DNA from: an uncultured Gemmatimonadales bacterium
Lineage (GTDB): Bacteria > Gemmatimonadota > Gemmatimonadetes > Longimicrobiales > RSA9
NCBI GenBank assembly: GCA_963783305.1
Contig: CAWAMW010000004.1
Coordinates: 1 to 17,255, forward strand
DNA length: 17,255 nucleotides
Reading direction: 5' to 3'
How positions within the stretch are numbered: position 1 is the first letter of the stretch; every line of letters begins with the position of its first letter. A program made the position numbers and the translations under genes. Below, in pieces: positions 2,240 to 11,746 of this stretch. Under the pieces are notes generated by a model. It was not told the DNA's origin, made no database searches, and saw only the letters and a program-made list of their open reading frames with translations.

Positions 2240-3214
2240 ATGCCAGACCCGGTGGACTCACCCCTCGTGACCGTGATCATCCCCGCCTTCAACGCCGAGG
2301 ACTTCATCGAGGAGGCGGTGTCGAGCGTCCTCGCCCAACGCGTCCGTGACCTGGAAGTGTTCGTCGTCGACGACGGCTCCACCGATCGAACGGCCGAGAT
2401 CGCGGGCTCGTTCACCGACCCTCGCGTCCGCGTGATTCGAAAACCCAACGGCGGCGTAAGCTCCGCACGGAACGTGGGGCTTAGGAATGCCCACGGAGCC
2501 GGTACATAGCGTTCCTGGATGCGGACGATCGGTGGCGGCCGCGAGATGCTCGAACGCACGCTCTCGGTGCTGGAGTCTCACGAGGAGGTGATCGCCGTCT
2601 TCACGAACTTCGTTCGATTCAGACAGGACGGCGCCCTCCTCTCGGAGCAGTTCCCGTTCTACAGGGAGCTGCCCGAGGTGTCTACCCGGCCCGCGGATGC
2701 ATTCGGGGCTCGCATCGTAACGACTCCCGCCTTCGATACGTTCGTCCGGTTCGGCGACATCCCGGCATTCACCCAGGCCATGACCTTCCGCGCCGACGCG
2801 ATCGCCGACCTCTTCTTCGACGAGGATCTCACGCTCGGCGAGGACACCCACTTCTGCCTCCGCGCGTTCCAGCGCGGGCGCCGTGGCGTTCACTCCCGAG
2901 GTGCTGGTCGAGGTCAGGCGGCACGGTGGCAATGCCACCGCCCACTGGAATCCATCAGCGGCCAAGCTCGCCGCGCTACAGAGGATCGATACCTCCGAAC
3001 CTCGATGACCGCGAGTCGCCGCGCGCTCCGGCGGCGAATCGGGCGGGAATGGGTTAACATGGGTCGATCACGGATCGCGGACGGACATTTCGGGGCTGGA
3101 CTCAGAGCCTATGGCCGAGGATTTCGGCTCGGGTTCAGACGGGCCGCCCTTCTGCGCGCCGCAATAGCGCCATTGCAGATCGTGCGATCGGCGGTCCTGC
3201 GCATGATCCGTTGA
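2240..3214 (+). CDS. GT2 (GT-A) glycosyltransferase, frameshifted in this sequence
   Basis: GGAG at 2232-2235 precedes ATG 2240. VTVIIPAFNAE, VVDDGSTD and NGGVSSARNVG are in frame 1. YIAFLDADDRW lies in another frame at about 2503-2535, LGEDTHF in the 2519 ORF, and AFTPEVLVEVRRHGGN in a shifted frame after about 2880. Apparent indels near 2500, 2542, 2878 and 3000. Confidence 0.85.
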
Positions 3215-3238
3215 ACACCCGTCGGCTCCGGAAGCGCG

Positions 3239-4435
3239 CTACACGGGACCGGCCTGATCCGCCGCGGCGGTCCGCCGGGTAGGCTCCCACACCGCGTGCT
3301 GGGTGCCGAAGAGGAAGCCGAGCATGGCGTGCGCCGCCGCCACGTTGCCCATCAGGGCATAGGCGGGAATTGAGACCAGCCGTGGCAGGTCCCGTCCTGC
3401 GCGGCTGAGCCACCAGCCCGCTCCGCCGATGCCCGAGAGCCAGGAGCGCGAGTCCGGCCATCACGGCGGCCCACGGGTGCCGCGGAGCCAGGACCAGGAG
3501 CGCCAGCAGGCCGCCGAGCGCCGCCCACGGCAGTGCCCACCGGGCGATCTTGTGGCTCCAGAGCATCCACGCGAAGGTCGGGTGCCGGAACGGGTTCAGA
3601 AGGTGGCGCTTGTACCACAGCGTCCGCATGCCGCGCCCCATGGTGCGTACCTTCCGGCGATACTCGGCTTTCAGCGAGCCGGCGCGGGGCACGTACGCCA
3701 CGGCCTCGGGCACGGATACGGCCCGATAGCCGTGCTCTTCGGCGTGGAGCGCGGCCGCGAAGTCGCGGCTCAGCTGCTCCGGGAGCGGGAGCCGGTGAAG
3801 GTGTGTCCGGATGCCGTAGAACGACCCGGACGCGCCGACGATCCCGTACAGGCGGGTCTCGGCGTCACGCACCGCCATCTCGTACCCGACGTATCCGGCC
3901 TCTCCCACGTTCTGCTCCGCCTCCAGCCGCGAAACACTCACATCGCGACCCGAAGCGACACCCACCTTCGGGTCCTGGAAGCGCGCCACCAGCGGCCGGA
4001 CGGCGTCGGGAGCGATGCGGATGGAGGCGTCGGTGTTGATCACGATCTCGCCATCGACGTTCCGGGCCGCCAGCGCCTCCGCCGCGGTCTTGCCGCGCCG
4101 CTCCGGCTGCCGGAGGAGCTGGACTCCACGATCCGCGTAGCCCCGCACGATCTCGTCGGTCCCGATCCGTGGACGCGTCCGAAACCACGAGGATCTGGCG
4201 TCGATCGGGAGGATAGTCGATGGCCAGCAGGGAATCCAGGGTCCGGGCGATCTCCGCCTCTTCGTTGTACGCCGGCAGGCTGAAGGAGATCCGGGGCCAG
4301 GTCTCCGGCTCCGCCGGATCCGATCGGCGACCGGGAGGCTCCGAGCAGGCGGACGAGCAGCGGATATCCCACGTACGCGTACACCGCCAGCAGCGCCGCG
4401 CCGAACAGGAGCAGGTATGCCGCCGTGTCGATCAC
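3239..4435 (-). CDS. Membrane-bound GT2 glycosyltransferase (PgaC/IcaA-like family), frameshifted in this sequence
   Basis: GTG at 4435 gives MIDTAAYLLLFGAALLAVYAYVGYPLL. Across frames: SLPAYNEE, VVSDASTD, RRGKTAA, INTDA, GASGSFYGIR, SRDF, EYRRKVR, WSHKIARW and hydrophobic helices. It ends VWEPTRRTAAADQAGPV with TAG at 3241-3239. Confidence 0.85.
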
Positions 4436-4737
4436 TGGACCCTCGCGAGGTGAGGCATCAGAAAGCTCTGCAGCGTTGAGGGAGCAGGGTGGTCCCGAGT
4501 AGACAGTCGGCCGGGGGGAGGAGTGTAATCGCGATCCGCGCCGCACGCCAGACACCGGCGCGGTCGCCGCACGCCCTCTTCACCGCTCCGGCGGGCCCTC
4601 CCTCCAGGGTGCGAAATTATTCGGCAGTGCGCGCAATAGGTATCGACATCAGCGGCGTGGAAGAGCCGCCCTGGAATGCGCGTTTGTGCGATTTCTGCCC
4701 GCCGTTCCGCCACATCCGGCGCTTCCGGCCCGTTGCG

Positions 4738-4753: not shown

Positions 4754-4796
4754 CAGACCTGCCCCGTCAGTTGTAGACAGCCGCTGACGAAAAGCA

Positions 4797-4895
4797 GGAT
4801 CGCTGCTCAGAGCGAAGCCGACCGAAAGGCGGTGGCGCAGAGCTACGGGGCTACCGCGATACCATCGCCATGCTCGCCGGGCCGCCAGTGAATCC
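4797..4895 (+). ncRNA. GEMM-I (c-di-GMP-I class) riboswitch aptamer, A20 variant (predicted 3',3'-cGAMP / c-AMP-GMP sensing)
   Basis: P1: CGCTG 4801-4805 with CAGTG 4886-4890, extendable by GGAT/ATCC. J1/2: CTCAGA. P2: GC 4812-13 with GC 4837-38, GCCG/CGGT, CC/GG and a GAAA tetraloop at 4824-4827. A47-equivalent at 4839. P3: GCTACGG with CCGGGC, GGC with GCT, a GCTA.../ATGC receptor-like element and a distal GCGAT/ATCGC hairpin. C4836-G4876 is the tertiary pair equivalent, and the C92-equivalent is at 4885. The aptamer ends about 65 nt upstream of ATG 4961. Confidence 0.9.
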
Positions 4896-4960
4896 ACCAC
4901 CCCGTGGGGACACCAGGCGGCCGTCATAGCATTCAGCGAGAATATCAAGGAGCACGGTCG

Positions 4961-6939
4961 ATGCGGACCCCGGCGATCAAGCGAGCCAAGCAGGATCTCT
5001 TCCTTCCCCTGTCCGCCATCCTGGCGTTCTTTCTCATCCTGGGCGGCTGTGACGCCGGCTCGTTCGTCGAGCCCGAGGAGTCCGCCAGCTGGCAGATCCA
5101 GGCCAGCGCGTACTCCCACGTCTTCACCGCCCTCGAGCAGACCGAACGGTTCACCGCCTCGGCCCAGGACAAGGCGGGGAACCCGATCCCGAACGCCGTC
5201 TTCCAGTGGACCTCTTCGGATCCCGCCGTGGCGACGGTGGCCGCGGATGGCTCCGTCACCGCGGTGGGCGCGGGCGAGGCGACCATCGAGGTCACTTCGG
5301 GGTGCTGCTCCGGCTCCGACGACATCCTCATCACCGTGGCGCAGGTGCCCGTCTCCATGAGCGTCTCGCCCGCGGAGGCGGAGGTCGGCATCGGCGACAC
5401 GCTCCGGCTCGTGACCACGGCACTCGACGCGAACGGTCATCCCATCGCGGGCGCAGAGTACACCACCAGCGACTCCACGGTCGCGCTGGTGTCTTCGGAG
5501 GGAGTGCTCCAGGGCCTCGGCGAGGGCGCCGTCATCGCCTCGGCGAAGATCAAGGGCAAGGTGGCAAAGTCGAACATCAAGGTGAAGGGCGCGACGACCG
5601 AGTCGCCCACCGAGCCCACCGTGGCCGAGGTACGGGCCAGCCATGACAGCCACGTTTTCACGGCGCCCGACCAGACGCTCCAGCTCTCGGCGCAGGCGCT
5701 CGACGATTCCGGCGAAGTCGTCAGCGGTGTTAGCTTTGACTGGTCCTCGACCAACACCGTCCGTCGCCACCGTGAGCTCCACAGGTATCGTGACCGCCAT
5801 GACCGCAGGCACCGCCCGGATCGTCGTCCTCGCGCTCTGCTGCGCCGCCGCGGATACCGTCGCGTTCACCGTGGAGGCCCAGACGCTGGGGGCCGGGACC
5901 GCGACGGCCACGGCCGGTGTGGAGCAGGTCATCCTCTCCGCTACCCCACCGACCGGCGGAACCCAGCCCTACAGCTATCAGTGGCACCGCTCCCTCTCCA
6001 GCGGCTTCACGCCGGCAGCGGGGAACGCCGTGGCGGGGCTGACGGACCCGGATGACGTGGATTCCGGACTCTCCGGCGGGACGACCTACTACTACAGGCT
6101 CGTGGCCTCCGATGCGGGCGGGGCCACGGTCACGTACGCCCAGGTCGAGGCCACCGCCCAGTCAACGCACGACCGCCGGCGCGCTGCACCCGAACGAGCC
6201 GGCGGGGATGACGGTCATCACCAACGCCGATGGCTCGGTCGCGTACAACGAGCCAGGCGGTCCCGCGTTCGGTGACCCGAAGTGGAGCAACTGGTGGGGG
6301 AACAAGGGGGTGAGCAGAACGTCGAGGTGGTGGACGACCCCGCCAATCCGACTGGCAGTGGCAAAGCAGTCCGGCTTCACTGGGTGGCGAATGAGGACAA
6401 TGATGCGGGCGAGGCCGCGAAGGCACAGCTTCACTTTGGCGACGGCTACTCGACACTCTACATCGTCATGCGGGTCGTGAAGCCGATGACGTGGCCCGTG
6501 GACGAGGGCAATGCGGCGCAGCCCAACGACCTGGCGCACAAGTGGATGTACATCCTGCCGGACGGGGGCTCTCGTGGGGCAACTCGGGCATCTGGACTGG
6601 CCACAACACCCAGGATCGTTGGCATCTGAGCGAACAATGGGAGAGTCAGCACCGAGATCGGCGCGCTCTGGCCATGCGTGCTCCCAATGAAATGCTGATG
6701 GAGGTACTCTGTTCGTTGCGGAATCAGCGCCCTATGCCCACGATGCGCAGGTCACGTTCTGGCTCAATGGAGAGTTCGTCGGAACGTCCAGCGTGGAAAA
6801 CATTGTTGACCAGGGCACGACGGAGTACGAGCCGTTCATGACGCGGCTCCAGCTCTACGCCCACGCCAACATCGTACCCCATGATACCTACTACGACATC
6901 CGCGAGTTCTATGTAAGCGGGAAGGGAGCCAGGAAGTGA
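4961..6939 (+). CDS. Surface lipoprotein with three bacterial Ig-like (Big_2-type) domains, an FN3-like domain and a C-terminal beta-sandwich (lectin/polysaccharide-lyase-like) domain; frameshifted in this sequence
   Basis: AAGGAG precedes ATG 4961. The signal peptide ends in lipobox LGG-C (Cys30, 5048-5050). Big_2 motifs: WTSSDPAVATVAADGSVTAVGAGEATIEV, TTSDSTVALVSSEGVL and WSSTN-PSVATVSSTGIVTA. FN3-like motif: DSGLSGGTTYYYRLVA. The C-terminal region runs HPNEPAGM...FWLNGEFVG...YYDIREFYVSGKGARK to TGA 6937-6939. Frameshifts near 5757, 6170, 6310, 6570 and 6710-6745. Confidence 0.8.
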
Positions 6940-7442: not shown

Positions 7443-8813
7443 ATGATGGGCAGCCGGCTTCCGAGAATGGTGTTTGGCGCGGCTACCCGCCTCAGAGGCG
7501 AAGGCGGTTGGGGGCAGCACCTCTACGAACTCAGGCAGTTGGAAGGCTGCACTCCGGAACAGGTAGCGATTCGCCAAAATAACCGGTTGGCGCAGCTACT
7601 TTCGTTCGCGGTGCACAACGTGGAACACTACCGCGATACCGAGAGAGACCCACGGGAAAATATATTCAACCACCCTTTGCAGCTGCTCTCTTCGCTTCCC
7701 CTTCTCGAAAAGCAGACACTCCAGCAGCAGCCTGATCGCCTGTACGGGGACTTGAGCGGTCGCGCGATCGCGAAGTCCACAGGCGGCTCGACAGGAGAGC
7801 CGGTCCGGCTTCTTAAGACCGCGGACGGTGTTGCGGTGGAACGGGCGTGCACATGGCTTGGCCTAAGCTGGTTCGGCATAGGCGTGGGTGATCCGGCTGT
7901 GCGGTTCTGGGGTACACCGTTGACGCGAAGCCGTCGTGTTCGGTTCCGCCTCGCCGACATGGCAATGAACCGGATTCGCCTTTCGGCATTCGAACTGGAG
8001 GAATCGGACCTGGCGGCATATTACGATCGAATTCAGCGGTTTCAACCGGCCTGGTTCTACGGCTACGCTTCGCTGATCGACCTGCTTGCGCAGTGGATAG
8101 AGCAATCTGGTCGGAACGGCACAACCCTCGGTCTGCGTTCAATAGTCCCCACCTCCGAGCCCCTGAGCCCGGAGCAGCGGGAAAGGGTTGGCCGGGTCTA
8201 CGGCGCGCCCGTCCAAAATGAGTACGGCTGCGGTGAGGTAGGTGCGATCGCCTACGAGTGCGAGAGGGGCTTGCTACACGTAATGAGTGAGTCGGTGCTG
8301 GTGGAGGTGTTGAAGGAGGATGGCTCGCCCGTAGCTGCGGGTGAGACTGGTGAGGTGGTGGTTACCGATCTCAACAACTACGCGATGCCCCTGATCAGGT
8401 ATCGGATGGGTGACCGAGCGGTCGCTGGTGGCGCATGCGCCTGCGGGAGACCATTTCCCACTCTGGAACGCGTGGTCGGCCGCATCCACGATGTAGTCTT
8501 TACCCCACTCGGCAGACGCTGGCACGGTGAGAAGATCAATTACCTCATGTCGTCCATCCACCAGGAGCTATTTCCATTCCAGCAATACCAGGTCGTCCAG
8601 AAGGAGCCTGACCTCTTAGAGGTGCGGCTGGTGGCAGATGTCCCGATTCCTGAGCCTGCCAAGTTGCGGATCTCTGCTTACGTGCGAGACCGCCTGGATG
8701 GGATGCGCACGGACGTTCGCCGGGTGGAGCGGATCGAGCGAAGCGCCAGCGGAAAGCTGCGCTTGGTGCGGAACGATTTGCAGAGTGCCCATCGGCACGG
8801 GGAGGGTGTGTGA
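7443..8813 (+). CDS. CapK-like / phenylacetate-CoA ligase family adenylate-forming (ANL) enzyme, copy 1
   Basis: SD AGGAGGT at 7434-7440 and an intact 456-aa ORF. ANL motifs: P-loop STGGSTGEP, FYGYAS, TSEPL, NEYGCGE, MPLIRYRMGD, CACGRPFP, GRIHD and SASGKLR. Confidence 0.92.
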   Translation: MMGSRLPRMVFGAATRLRGEGGWGQHLYELRQLEGCTPEQVAIRQNNRLAQLLSFAVHNVEHYRDTERDPRENIFNHPLQLLSSLPLLEKQTLQQQPDRLYGDLSGRAIAKSTGGSTGEPVRLLKTADGVAVERACTWLGLSWFGIGVGDPAVRFWGTPLTRSRRVRFRLADMAMNRIRLSAFELEESDLAAYYDRIQRFQPAWFYGYASLIDLLAQWIEQSGRNGTTLGLRSIVPTSEPLSPEQRERVGRVYGAPVQNEYGCGEVGAIAYECERGLLHVMSESVLVEVLKEDGSPVAAGETGEVVVTDLNNYAMPLIRYRMGDRAVAGGACACGRPFPTLERVVGRIHDVVFTPLGRRWHGEKINYLMSSIHQELFPFQQYQVVQKEPDLLEVRLVADVPIPEPAKLRISAYVRDRLDGMRTDVRRVERIERSASGKLRLVRNDLQSAHRHGEGV

Positions 8814-10108: not shown

Positions 10109-10331
10109 GGCGGCTGGACAGCTATGTAGTCAAGACAATGGCAGATGTCGTGATCATAGTATCGCAGTCCGCCCTCCACCGCCACCGCGGCAAGTGGGTA
10201 GCCGCCGGGCTTGACCCGAGCGGGTGCTGGTGCCAACATCAGCGACTCGCCCGCTGGCTCTCCTGAAAGCCCGAAGAAGATCCTTGTCGAAATCCGACCG
10301 TGATGGCCCGTTCCCTCCGCCCGGTGCGCTG

Positions 10332-11746
10332 ATGGGGAAGGCGCGCAACTTCCTGCGCGGCGAAATCCTGTATCGTCTGGCGGTGCAGACTCGAGGTGAG
10401 CACTCGGTCTACACCAGGCTCGCGGCTCTTCAACGGATGGAAGGCGAATCGAAGGAGTCGGTGCGCGAGCAGCAGCGGCGGAGACTGGCCGAGATGCTGA
10501 ACTACGTGCTCACCGGCGTGCCCTATTACCGCGGCAGGGGGTCGTCCGACCGCGTTAAGCCCGGGGCCGCTACTGAAGCCCTGCGACAGCTGCCGATCCT
10601 GGAGAAGGAGGTCATCCAGGAGCGGCCGGGGGAGCTGTTGGCCGAAGGCTGGACCGGGCGCTATACGAGCAAGACCACGGGCGGCTCGACGGGTCAGCCG
10701 GTTACGGTCCGAAAGAACCGCGAAGCCATCGCGCAGGAAATGGCGGCGACCTGGCTGGCCTACGGCTGGTTCGGAGTTCAGATTGGCGACCCCTGCATTC
10801 GCTTCTGGGGCCAACCGCCGCGCAATATTAGGCGCAGGATCCGGTACATGGCGGCGGACCTCGCCACTCACCGGAAGACGCTCTCGGCCTTCGGGTACAC
10901 GCGCGGCGACCTCAGAGAGTACGTCGACACCATCGACCGATTCCGGCCCTCGTACCTCTACGGGTACGTTTCGGCGCTGGAGGACCTGGCGCGGTACCTC
11001 CTCGACGGAAGGCGCCGGAGCTGGCCGGTCGCTACCTAAACTCCGTGGTCACCACATCCGAGGTACTGACGCCGCCTCAGAGGGCTACGATCCAGGAAGC
11101 GTTCGGTGTTCCCGTCCAGAACGAGTACGGCTGTGGTGAACTCGGCCCCATTGCGTACGAGTGCCGGGAATGGATCCCTCCATTCCTGCCCATGAACCAG
11201 TACTTGGAGATCGTCGACGACCATGGGCATGCCGTGCCGCCGGGTGAGCCCGGCCATATCGTCCTGACTGACCTGACGAATCGTGTGATGCCGTTGATCC
11301 GCTACCGGATCGGTGACATGGGCCGCTCCGGTCCCCCCTGCTCCTGTGGCCGACCGTTCCCGGTCCTGGGGGAGGTGTTCGGCAGGGAGTACGACTTCGT
11401 GGAAGCGCCGGACGGGCGCCGGTTCCACGGGGAGTTCTTCATGTACGCCTTCGAGGACCTCCGCCAGAGGCACCCGGAGATCGGGCAGTTCCAGGTCGTG
11501 CAGACGGCGGCGACGGAGCTGGTGGTGCGGGTCGTCCGGAGCGGCTCTTCCGGCACGGACACCCTGGACGGTATTCGGGCGGAGCTGGAGCGGAGGCTGC
11601 CCGGTTTCCGCTTTTCGATCGACTGGGTCCCGCAGCTCGAGCGGCGAGCTTCGGGCAAGATGCGGGTCGTGGAAAACCGTCTTGAGCAGGATTCCTCGGA
11701 TAAGGACTCCTCGTCCGCTGACCCCCGGGCGGATGTGAACCAATAG
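10332..11746 (+). CDS. CapK-like / phenylacetate-CoA ligase family adenylate-forming enzyme, copy 2; frameshifted near 11010-11045
   Basis: ATG 10332 (MGKARNFLRG). TTGGSTGQP and YLYGYVS are in the first frame. TTSEVL, NEYGCGE, MPLIRYRIGD, CSCGRPFP and RASGKMR are in the 11045 ORF. Colinear with copy 1. Confidence 0.88.

Follow-up and report, generated by a model that had tools for sequence, protein, structure and literature searches.

The window, which is the whole 17,255-nt stretch of DNA analyzed here, corresponds to contig C4 of a 4.35 Mb genome that is 96% complete. It carries a polysaccharide locus, many genes of which are frameshifted in the assembly. On the plus strand, a GEMM-I aptamer is followed after 71 nt by a gene for a predicted lipoprotein with a signal peptide, an LGGC lipobox and Big_2 Ig-like repeats, and the neighboring GT2 glycosyltransferase gene is oriented divergently. 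The original prediction, made from the sequence alone, had placed a surface lipoprotein of a polysaccharide locus behind the aptamer, which agrees with this arrangement. The features of the region are as follows.

3135–4555, minus strand: divergent GT2 glycosyltransferase of the polysaccharide locus, frameshifted (ORF and domain analysis)
4797–4895, plus strand: GEMM-I (c-di-GMP-I fold) aptamer of the A20/G48 subclass (Rfam match 4801–4889; P1 extendable to 4797 and 4895)
4801–4805, plus strand: 5′ strand of P1, G4805 being G14 (sequence; helix 1 is 99% paired)
4805–4808, plus strand: GCUC, predicted to pair with 4840–4843 (GAGC) in the ligand-free RNA, the helix being completed by G48 (folding)
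4811, plus strand: A20, which reads the alpha nucleotide of the ligand (cmscan alignment; role according to PMC6140456)
4812–4838, plus strand: P2 with GAAA tetraloop at 4824–4827; G4814 is A23G and C4836 is C44 (cmscan, subclass alignment)
4839–4841, plus strand: J2/3 with A47 (4839), G48 (4840, the subclass signature) and A49 (4841) (cmscan, aptamer survey)
4842–4882, plus strand: P3 with a tetraloop-receptor-like segment; G4876 is G83 (cmscan, subclass alignment)
4880–4922, plus strand: predicted OFF-state hairpin, 4880–4886 with 4916–4922, sequestering C92 and C93 (folding predictions)
4885, plus strand: C92, which pairs with the beta guanine of the ligand (cmscan; role according to PMC6140456)
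4886–4890, plus strand: 3′ strand of P1 (sequence)
4947–4952, plus strand: Shine-Dalgarno-like AAGGAG (sequence)
4961–6939, plus strand: controlled gene, predicted lipoprotein with signal peptide, LGGC lipobox and Big_2 Ig-like repeats (several frames in the contig, end approximate)

Overlaps connect C4 with the end of C2 (97% identity) and the start of C13 (78–88%), and the polysaccharide locus recurs in other divergent versions on C1, C3 and C5, indicating that the bin mixes strains. The contigs C1, C3, C4 and C5, each 17–21 kb in length, represent haplotypes that are 77–97% identical, and the main assembly is gapped exactly at this place. The C4 and C1 copies of the aptamer are distinguished by two positions, and a 1.18 kb block including the ORF is 82% identical. 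A third aptamer of the genome (C6:96283–96358; L002) has G20, precedes a subtilase lipoprotein gene and carries A instead of C at position 93.

Some further features of the locus and the genome were observed. A short hairpin just 5′ of the aptamer (4765–4789) is kept in C1. Positions 7443–8813 and 10224–11746 of the window hold paralogous phenylacetate-CoA-ligase-like (AMP-binding) genes with approx. 65% DNA identity as compared via the C1 copy. A 385-aa ORF at the start of the locus (36–1193) has no Pfam match and is conserved on C5 and C13. Outside the locus, 19 tRNA genes are packed into 2.5 kb (C2:112817–115285), and a gene for tRNA-SeC is present on C7.

Fold and authenticity of the aptamer

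The cmscan search returned c-di-GMP-I (RF01051) as the sole gathering-level match in the window (4801–4889, plus strand, 47.4 bits, E 1e-06). The match spans the full model (positions 1–87) and exceeds the gathering cut-off of 35 bits, and no variant family of clan CL00126 outscored RF01051, cmscan keeping the best clan member. In an alignment of 28 subclass sequences, which were our selection among plus-strand loci, the GEMM-I structure was 96.5% paired with two-sided changes in 18 of 28 pairs, far above shuffled controls and above slid controls (24–47% paired). The C44-G83 tertiary pair, represented by C4836 and G4876 in the window, is invariant in this alignment and therefore uninformative for covariation. 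By itself, the aptamer was no more stable than shuffled sequences (z -0.69); together with the downstream leader, a z-score of -3.72 was obtained.

The numbering of the aptamer was checked via the Rfam alignment and PMC3764141. A4811 aligned with the model G immediately before the G21-C46 pair of P2, and A4839 is located 27+1 nt past A4811, which is the spacing expected for A47 given a one-base insertion in P2 at 4821. The three-stem fold with P1 as described, the A at the G20-equivalent position and the retention of the A47 (4839) and C92 (4885) equivalents had all been predicted, and the Rfam match and alignment confirmed each of them. A4811 is repeated on C1, the second haplotype of the locus, and contigs (assembled sequences, not raw reads) at least 95% alike from two other public metagenomes span the position with no difference listed. 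A sequencing error at 4811 was excluded by these copies. Judged from its sequence, the window RNA is a genuine riboswitch.

With the c-di-GMP-I riboswitch (RF01051; Vibrio cholerae Vc2), the window aptamer shares the entire secondary structure including the GNRA loop, C44-G83, A47, A49 and C92. In contrast to Vc2, the window aptamer has the exchanges G20A, A48G and A23G. It differs from canonical c-di-GMP-selective GEMM-I aptamers by A at position 20 and G at position 48, with A47 and C92 kept, and the combination of A20 with C92 is that of GEMM-Ib. As in a riboswitch leader, the aptamer lies 5′ of a gene (ATG at 4961) and a competing hairpin (4880–4922) is predicted. Pairing of G23 with C44 is conceivable on paper, although C44 is required for C44-G83 (PMC11705072).

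The A20/G48 subclass and its expression platform

RF01051 was found above its cut-off in 59 of 101 related genomes. Classification of 135 aptamers from 48 genomes, which are about two thirds of approx. 200 matches after 5 of 140 parsed rows had been dropped as flank false matches, yielded 84 G20/A48, 41 A20/G48, 5 A20/A48 and 5 C20/A48 aptamers, but no G20/G48 aptamer. As the aptamer rows are kin, the linkage of A20 and G48 may reflect common descent. The A20/G48 form is a conserved subclass rather than a one-off. The original prediction had regarded G4814 and G4840 as two deviations that may tune affinity; both are real, but G4840 is the signature of the subclass and not a local tuning change. 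G23, in turn, is confined to 6 of the 41 subclass copies, always alongside G43, in this genome and close relatives. Sixteen genomes contain both A20/G48 and G20 aptamers. The A20/A48 aptamers were considered as the actual partners of Hypr; four of the five, a small sample, are located in genomes with a Hypr GGDEF.

The exact subclass pattern is present in 33 of 101 relatives and 41 of 301 phylum genomes. It was found in 122 stretches from 13 of 64 parts of GTDB, four of which are chance matches in which the remainder of the fold is absent, and approx. 610 stretches are estimated overall. Carriers span Gemmatimonadota, Nitrospirota, Acidobacteriota and one Desulfuromonadales bin, the named records with the motif assigning 90 of 122 loci to Gemmatimonadota. 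On this basis, the window probably stems from the same phylum and, within it, from Longimicrobiales. Some tallies take in unpublished genomes (G021, G024, G051, G062, G152, G234 and G253), and no conclusion depends on any one of them. Downstream ORFs were picked by script at 82 loci, a few of which are duplicates, and 73 were scanned after nine short, duplicate or wrong-frame ORFs had been dropped. Among these, 39 encode Big_2 and 6 more fn3 domains, 5 DUF5666, 6 signaling or regulatory proteins and 1 PilM, while 12 have no family and 4 belong to others.

Two arrangements were noted among subclass loci. In L072, L099 and L123, an A20/G48 aptamer with terminator is directly followed by a G20 aptamer, possibly a two-signal AND gate, and L162 harbors three A20/G48 aptamers spaced 157 nt apart.

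Within 70 nt downstream, 94 of 112 subclass members have a segment that can pair with the 3′ end of the aptamer (control window: 23 of 109), and a U-rich tail follows the hairpin in 73 of 112. In the window, the hairpin formed by 4880–4886 and 4916–4922 appeared in all three ligand-free folds with a P1 probability of 0.0, and the pair 4808–4840 reached a probability of 0.81–0.96. No U-run follows this hairpin in the window. No sigma-70 promoter was found, and a terminator-like match on the plus strand (5014–5026) falls within the ORF. In the C1 copy, the predicted unpaired fraction of the Shine-Dalgarno GGA rises from 0.03–0.06 to 0.67–0.83 between the two states, with little change in the window copy.

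These folds predict an ON switch, since the OFF hairpin excludes P1 and C92, so that ligand should turn expression on. Without ligand, 4880–4886 would pair with 4916–4922 and 4805–4808 with 4840–4843, leaving neither P1 nor a binding pocket. The ligand would stack on A47 and pair with C92 and A20, thereby locking P1 and removing the OFF hairpin. As the U-tail typical of subclass terminators is missing in the window copy, weak termination, Rho-dependent termination and ribosome access are candidates for its output step.

Candidate writers and erasers of cGAMP

Hypr GGDEFs carry Ser348, nine residues after Asn339, together with the GGDEF motif, and the exchange S348D converts GacA into a diguanylate cyclase (PMC6456294). 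The c-di-GMP machinery of the genome comprises 14 GGDEF, 5 EAL and 10 HD_5 matches. The residue at the Ser348 position is Asp in all 14 GGDEF matches and Ser or Thr in none of them, in an assembly that is 96% complete and strain-mixed. A custom HMM run over the six-frame ORFs of the genome revealed no further intact GGDEF domain. With the orthologue of the same genus as query, the best tblastn match in the genome was an Asp-type paralogue with 37% identity, and a local search at the syntenic tRNA-Lys site found no Hypr gene. Both flanks of this site are located on C15, approx. 200 bp apart, indicating that the gene is missing from the consensus and not hidden in a gap. A Hypr gene that is frameshifted or overlooked by Pfam was thus not found by the tblastn, HMM and syntenic-site searches.

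A GAF-GGDEF protein with Ser and an intact GGDEF motif is encoded in 14 of 100 relatives, including 5 of 6 same-genus genomes, and is located after tRNA-Lys in G001, G003 and G006. GacA (PDB 6d9m) was the best PDB match of the same-genus protein, with a near-identical motif. All 14 orthologues have Ser and GGDEF, and the cross-dimer position (Tyr304) is occupied by the non-Arg residues Asp (13) or Gly (1). Sequence comparison thus suggests a GacA-like enzyme with Ser348 and GGDEF. Unlike GacA, it has GAF instead of Rec as input domain and Asp or Gly instead of Tyr304, and the gene is missing from the genome studied here.

Other potential synthases were inspected. The sole CD-NTase gene of the genome is frameshifted and belongs to a CBASS operon that also contains TGT-like and 2TM genes. 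It was rejected as a cGAMP source owing to the frameshift in the assembly and its position inside a defense operon. The CBASS-like operon itself (C17, approx. 350180–353200; L048) consists of QueC-like and TGT-like genes, the frameshift-split CD-NTase gene and a 2TM effector gene. In the near-complete carriers G017, G037, G041 and G054, every intact-motif GGDEF (52 matches) has Asp. By pattern, an Asn-type GGDEF is encoded by 91 of 125 genomes of another family (f4) and by 25 of its 28 carriers (p 0.03); of its 112 pattern matches, 30 were translated and all have Asn. The f4 proteins (L314–L341) are approx. 580 aa long, keep the GGDEF motif intact and have Asn at the position otherwise held by Ser348 or Asp.

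An RxxQ motif is present in one of the ten HD_5 matches (C12:83916–85349), with the His and Asp ligands aligned and RSYQ aligning with RPYK of PmGH (4mcw). This motif is the signature of cGAMP phosphodiesterases according to bioRxiv 600031. The same source describes RxxQ/N enzymes as more widespread than Hypr and reports that two of five active ones degraded both signals. On its sequence, the C12 gene product resembles the cGAMP phosphodiesterase PmxA and would supply the Rxx(Q/N) HD-GYP protein of a GEMM-Ib host. Orthologues were found in 56 of 60 family genomes; 28 sequences were parsed from 30 loci, and 24 of them have Q. The D-A-x-T-x-x-R-x-Y-Q pattern was matched in 224 of 301 phylum genomes, and the RxxQ HD-GYP is too common to discriminate carriers.

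The original prediction had proposed that this organism uses cGAMP signaling. That claim stands unproven, and the 14 Asp-type GGDEFs and the absence of Hypr from the syntenic site weaken it. A genome devoid of a plausible cGAMP synthase had been named as grounds for giving it up, and this is largely what the assembly presents, its only CD-NTase being frameshifted. At the level of the lineage, the proposed pathway fared better, as five of six same-genus genomes encode a Hypr GGDEF and the genome studied here has an RxxQ HD-GYP, but the synthase gene is missing from it.

Co-occurrence of the subclass with Hypr depends on the taxonomic level. Within the order, Hypr is present in 5 of 32 carriers versus 9 of 68 non-carriers (Fisher p 0.76), or in 7 of 34 carriers after addition of two variant copies (p 0.23). 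This missing association weakens the step from the subclass to a cGAMP origin. In the family, 22 of 27 carriers have no Hypr, and 14 of 40 phylum carriers have no non-Asp GGDEF as judged by exact patterns, with which part of the domains is overlooked (a motif of this kind detected 10 of the 14 GGDEFs here). Outside Gemmatimonadota, the 25 carrier genomes include 20 with Ser, 1 with Thr, 1 with Asn only and 3 with none of these types. Ser-type GGDEFs are found in all 9 Nitrospirota carriers versus 80 of 151 background genomes (binomial p 0.003, the kin not being independent) and in 8 of 9 Acidobacteriota carriers, the latter being a carrier count only. We met no discussion of cGAMP in Nitrospirota in the literature searched, a phylum with the Ser-type motif in these 80 genomes.

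Ligand of the aptamer

A20 GEMM-I aptamers are already known, and the A20/G48 form is a variant of them. The tested GEMM-Ib examples are described by A20 only in the literature covered. Gs1761 and Gm0970 of Geobacter are more than 1000-fold selective for cGAMP (PMC6456294; PMC8835794), and a G-to-A change in an aptamer of D. acetoxidans markedly improved cGAMP binding (PMC9481103). In PMC6140456, however, A20 is reported to admit c-di-GMP via N1 protonation, with KD values of 53 nM for c-di-GMP and 120 nM for cGAMP in Vc2 G20A and of 30 nM and 463 nM, respectively, in Cbe 1-2 of Clostridium beijerinckii. As both of these RNAs favor c-di-GMP, A20 alone does not predict selectivity. The original equation of A20 with a preference for cGAMP can therefore be retained in part: by analogy, A20 makes cGAMP binding by the window aptamer likely, but it does not by itself confer selectivity. 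c-di-AMP was rejected as ligand; a DAC gene is present in the genome, but the retained C92 argues against it.

The window aptamer shares the GEMM-I fold, A20, A47, C92, the predicted ON logic and the presumed control of surface functions with Geobacter GEMM-Ib, and Hypr GGDEFs are found in many carrier genomes of the A20/G48 subclass. In contrast to Geobacter GEMM-Ib, the subclass has G48 and a fixed P1 and J1/2 sequence, a distinction based on published descriptions. Moreover, its presumed targets are Ig-like lipoproteins instead of cytochromes, and the window genome is devoid of a Hypr GGDEF. Cbe 1-2 and Vc2 G20A have the same A20/C92 pocket and provide a model for c-di-GMP recognition via protonated A20. 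The window aptamer differs from them by G48, the phylum and the expression platform.

We consider it about an even chance (probability approx. 0.5) that the RNA is a cGAMP-capable, probably bispecific ON switch, which reads c-di-GMP in this Hypr-less genome. Because the subclass accompanies Hypr GGDEFs in other phyla and in this genus, it likely arose as a cGAMP reader. Since the assembly contains no Hypr gene, the working signal here would be c-di-GMP bound via protonated A20, presumably with a lower affinity than that of the G20 aptamer on C6. A strain carrying the window haplotype may be an exception and still have a Hypr gene. Two facts stay unexplained if most of the family uses c-di-GMP, namely the fixation of A20/G48 beside G20 aptamers and the retention of RxxQ in 56 of 60 family genomes.

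The same two facts would be accounted for by a cGAMP-selective aptamer in an organism that makes cGAMP, either by a synthase missed by the signature or by a Hypr gene kept in the haplotype strain. The tandem order of A20/G48 and G20 aptamers in L072, L099 and L123 is compatible with two signals, the locus exists in several strain haplotypes, of which the window contig is one, and the Asn-type GGDEF of f4 is frequent among carriers. We nevertheless hold this to be a minority possibility, as intact-motif GGDEFs are exclusively Asp-type here and in the four near-complete carriers, S348D makes GacA a diguanylate cyclase (PMC6456294), the sole CD-NTase gene is frameshifted and part of CBASS, and RxxQ/N enzymes have a wider distribution than Hypr, some degrading both signals (bioRxiv 600031). 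Alternatively, the subclass senses c-di-GMP everywhere, A20 lowering the affinity such that adhesins are switched on only at high c-di-GMP, G48 being used for the helix of the OFF state and the co-occurrence with Hypr mirroring which phyla carry the subclass. Surface adhesins are typical c-di-GMP outputs. The subclass and Hypr are unassociated in the order, 14 of 40 phylum carriers lack a non-Asp GGDEF by pattern, the GCUC/GAGC helix is completed by G48, and Cbe 1-2 prefers c-di-GMP (PMC6140456). Against this rather unlikely scenario stand the Ser-type GGDEFs in 9 of 9 Nitrospirota carriers versus 53% background, the improved cGAMP binding of the D. acetoxidans aptamer (PMC9481103) and the retention of G48 in those 6 of 41 subclass copies whose position 17 is A, although the helix pair is impossible there.

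A coupled two-base change of the pocket might also indicate a new ligand class made by an enzyme not yet identified, such as a different purine dinucleotide or a mixed one containing a single guanine. A48, which PMC3764141 counts among the key conserved bases for ligand recognition, is replaced in 41 of 46 A20 aptamers. J1/2 and P1 of the subclass are stereotyped across phyla, and no known synthase tracks with the subclass in the family. We regard a new class as improbable nonetheless, because C92, A47 and C44-G83 are all kept, the perfect A20-G48 linkage may be due to common descent, a ligand is already offered by the association with Hypr in other phyla and A48 perhaps contacts the backbone only. 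A bolder view, which we put forward tentatively as a possibility, is that A20/G48 aptamers form a distinct selective subclass by which Ig-like adhesins in Gemmatimonadota, Nitrospirota and Acidobacteriota are connected to a second dinucleotide channel, using either cGAMP or a mixed dinucleotide that would be new. As the family keeps the reader and the RxxQ eraser, mostly without Hypr, its writer would then be an as yet unrecognized synthase.

Riboswitch-read cGAMP signaling has been worked out mainly in Geobacter. The A20/G48 variant is estimated at approx. 600 genome stretches, mostly in a common, little-studied phylum, and comes with Ser- and Asn-type GGDEFs as candidate writers and with an eraser candidate that is nearly universal. 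We found no paper on the A20/G48 subclass or on a cGAMP pathway in Gemmatimonadota, and the primary papers from 2015 and the consensus in PMC5473149 may include G48 members. If the RNA is merely a bispecific c-di-GMP sensor, the single locus would be ordinary; genomes with reader and eraser and without a known writer are natural tests of bispecific re-use or of a missing synthase.

Two further observations concern synthases and binding pockets in general. A GGDDF-motif protein with Asp348 is conserved in all five family genomes examined (C7:533498–534478; L361, L375, L388 and L401). The C7 protein has a receiver-like N-terminus and no cross-dimer Arg and is a candidate for synthase screens. 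In addition, five GEMM-I aptamers (L255, L484, L489, L493 and L499) carry C at position 20 and thus represent a further pocket variant.
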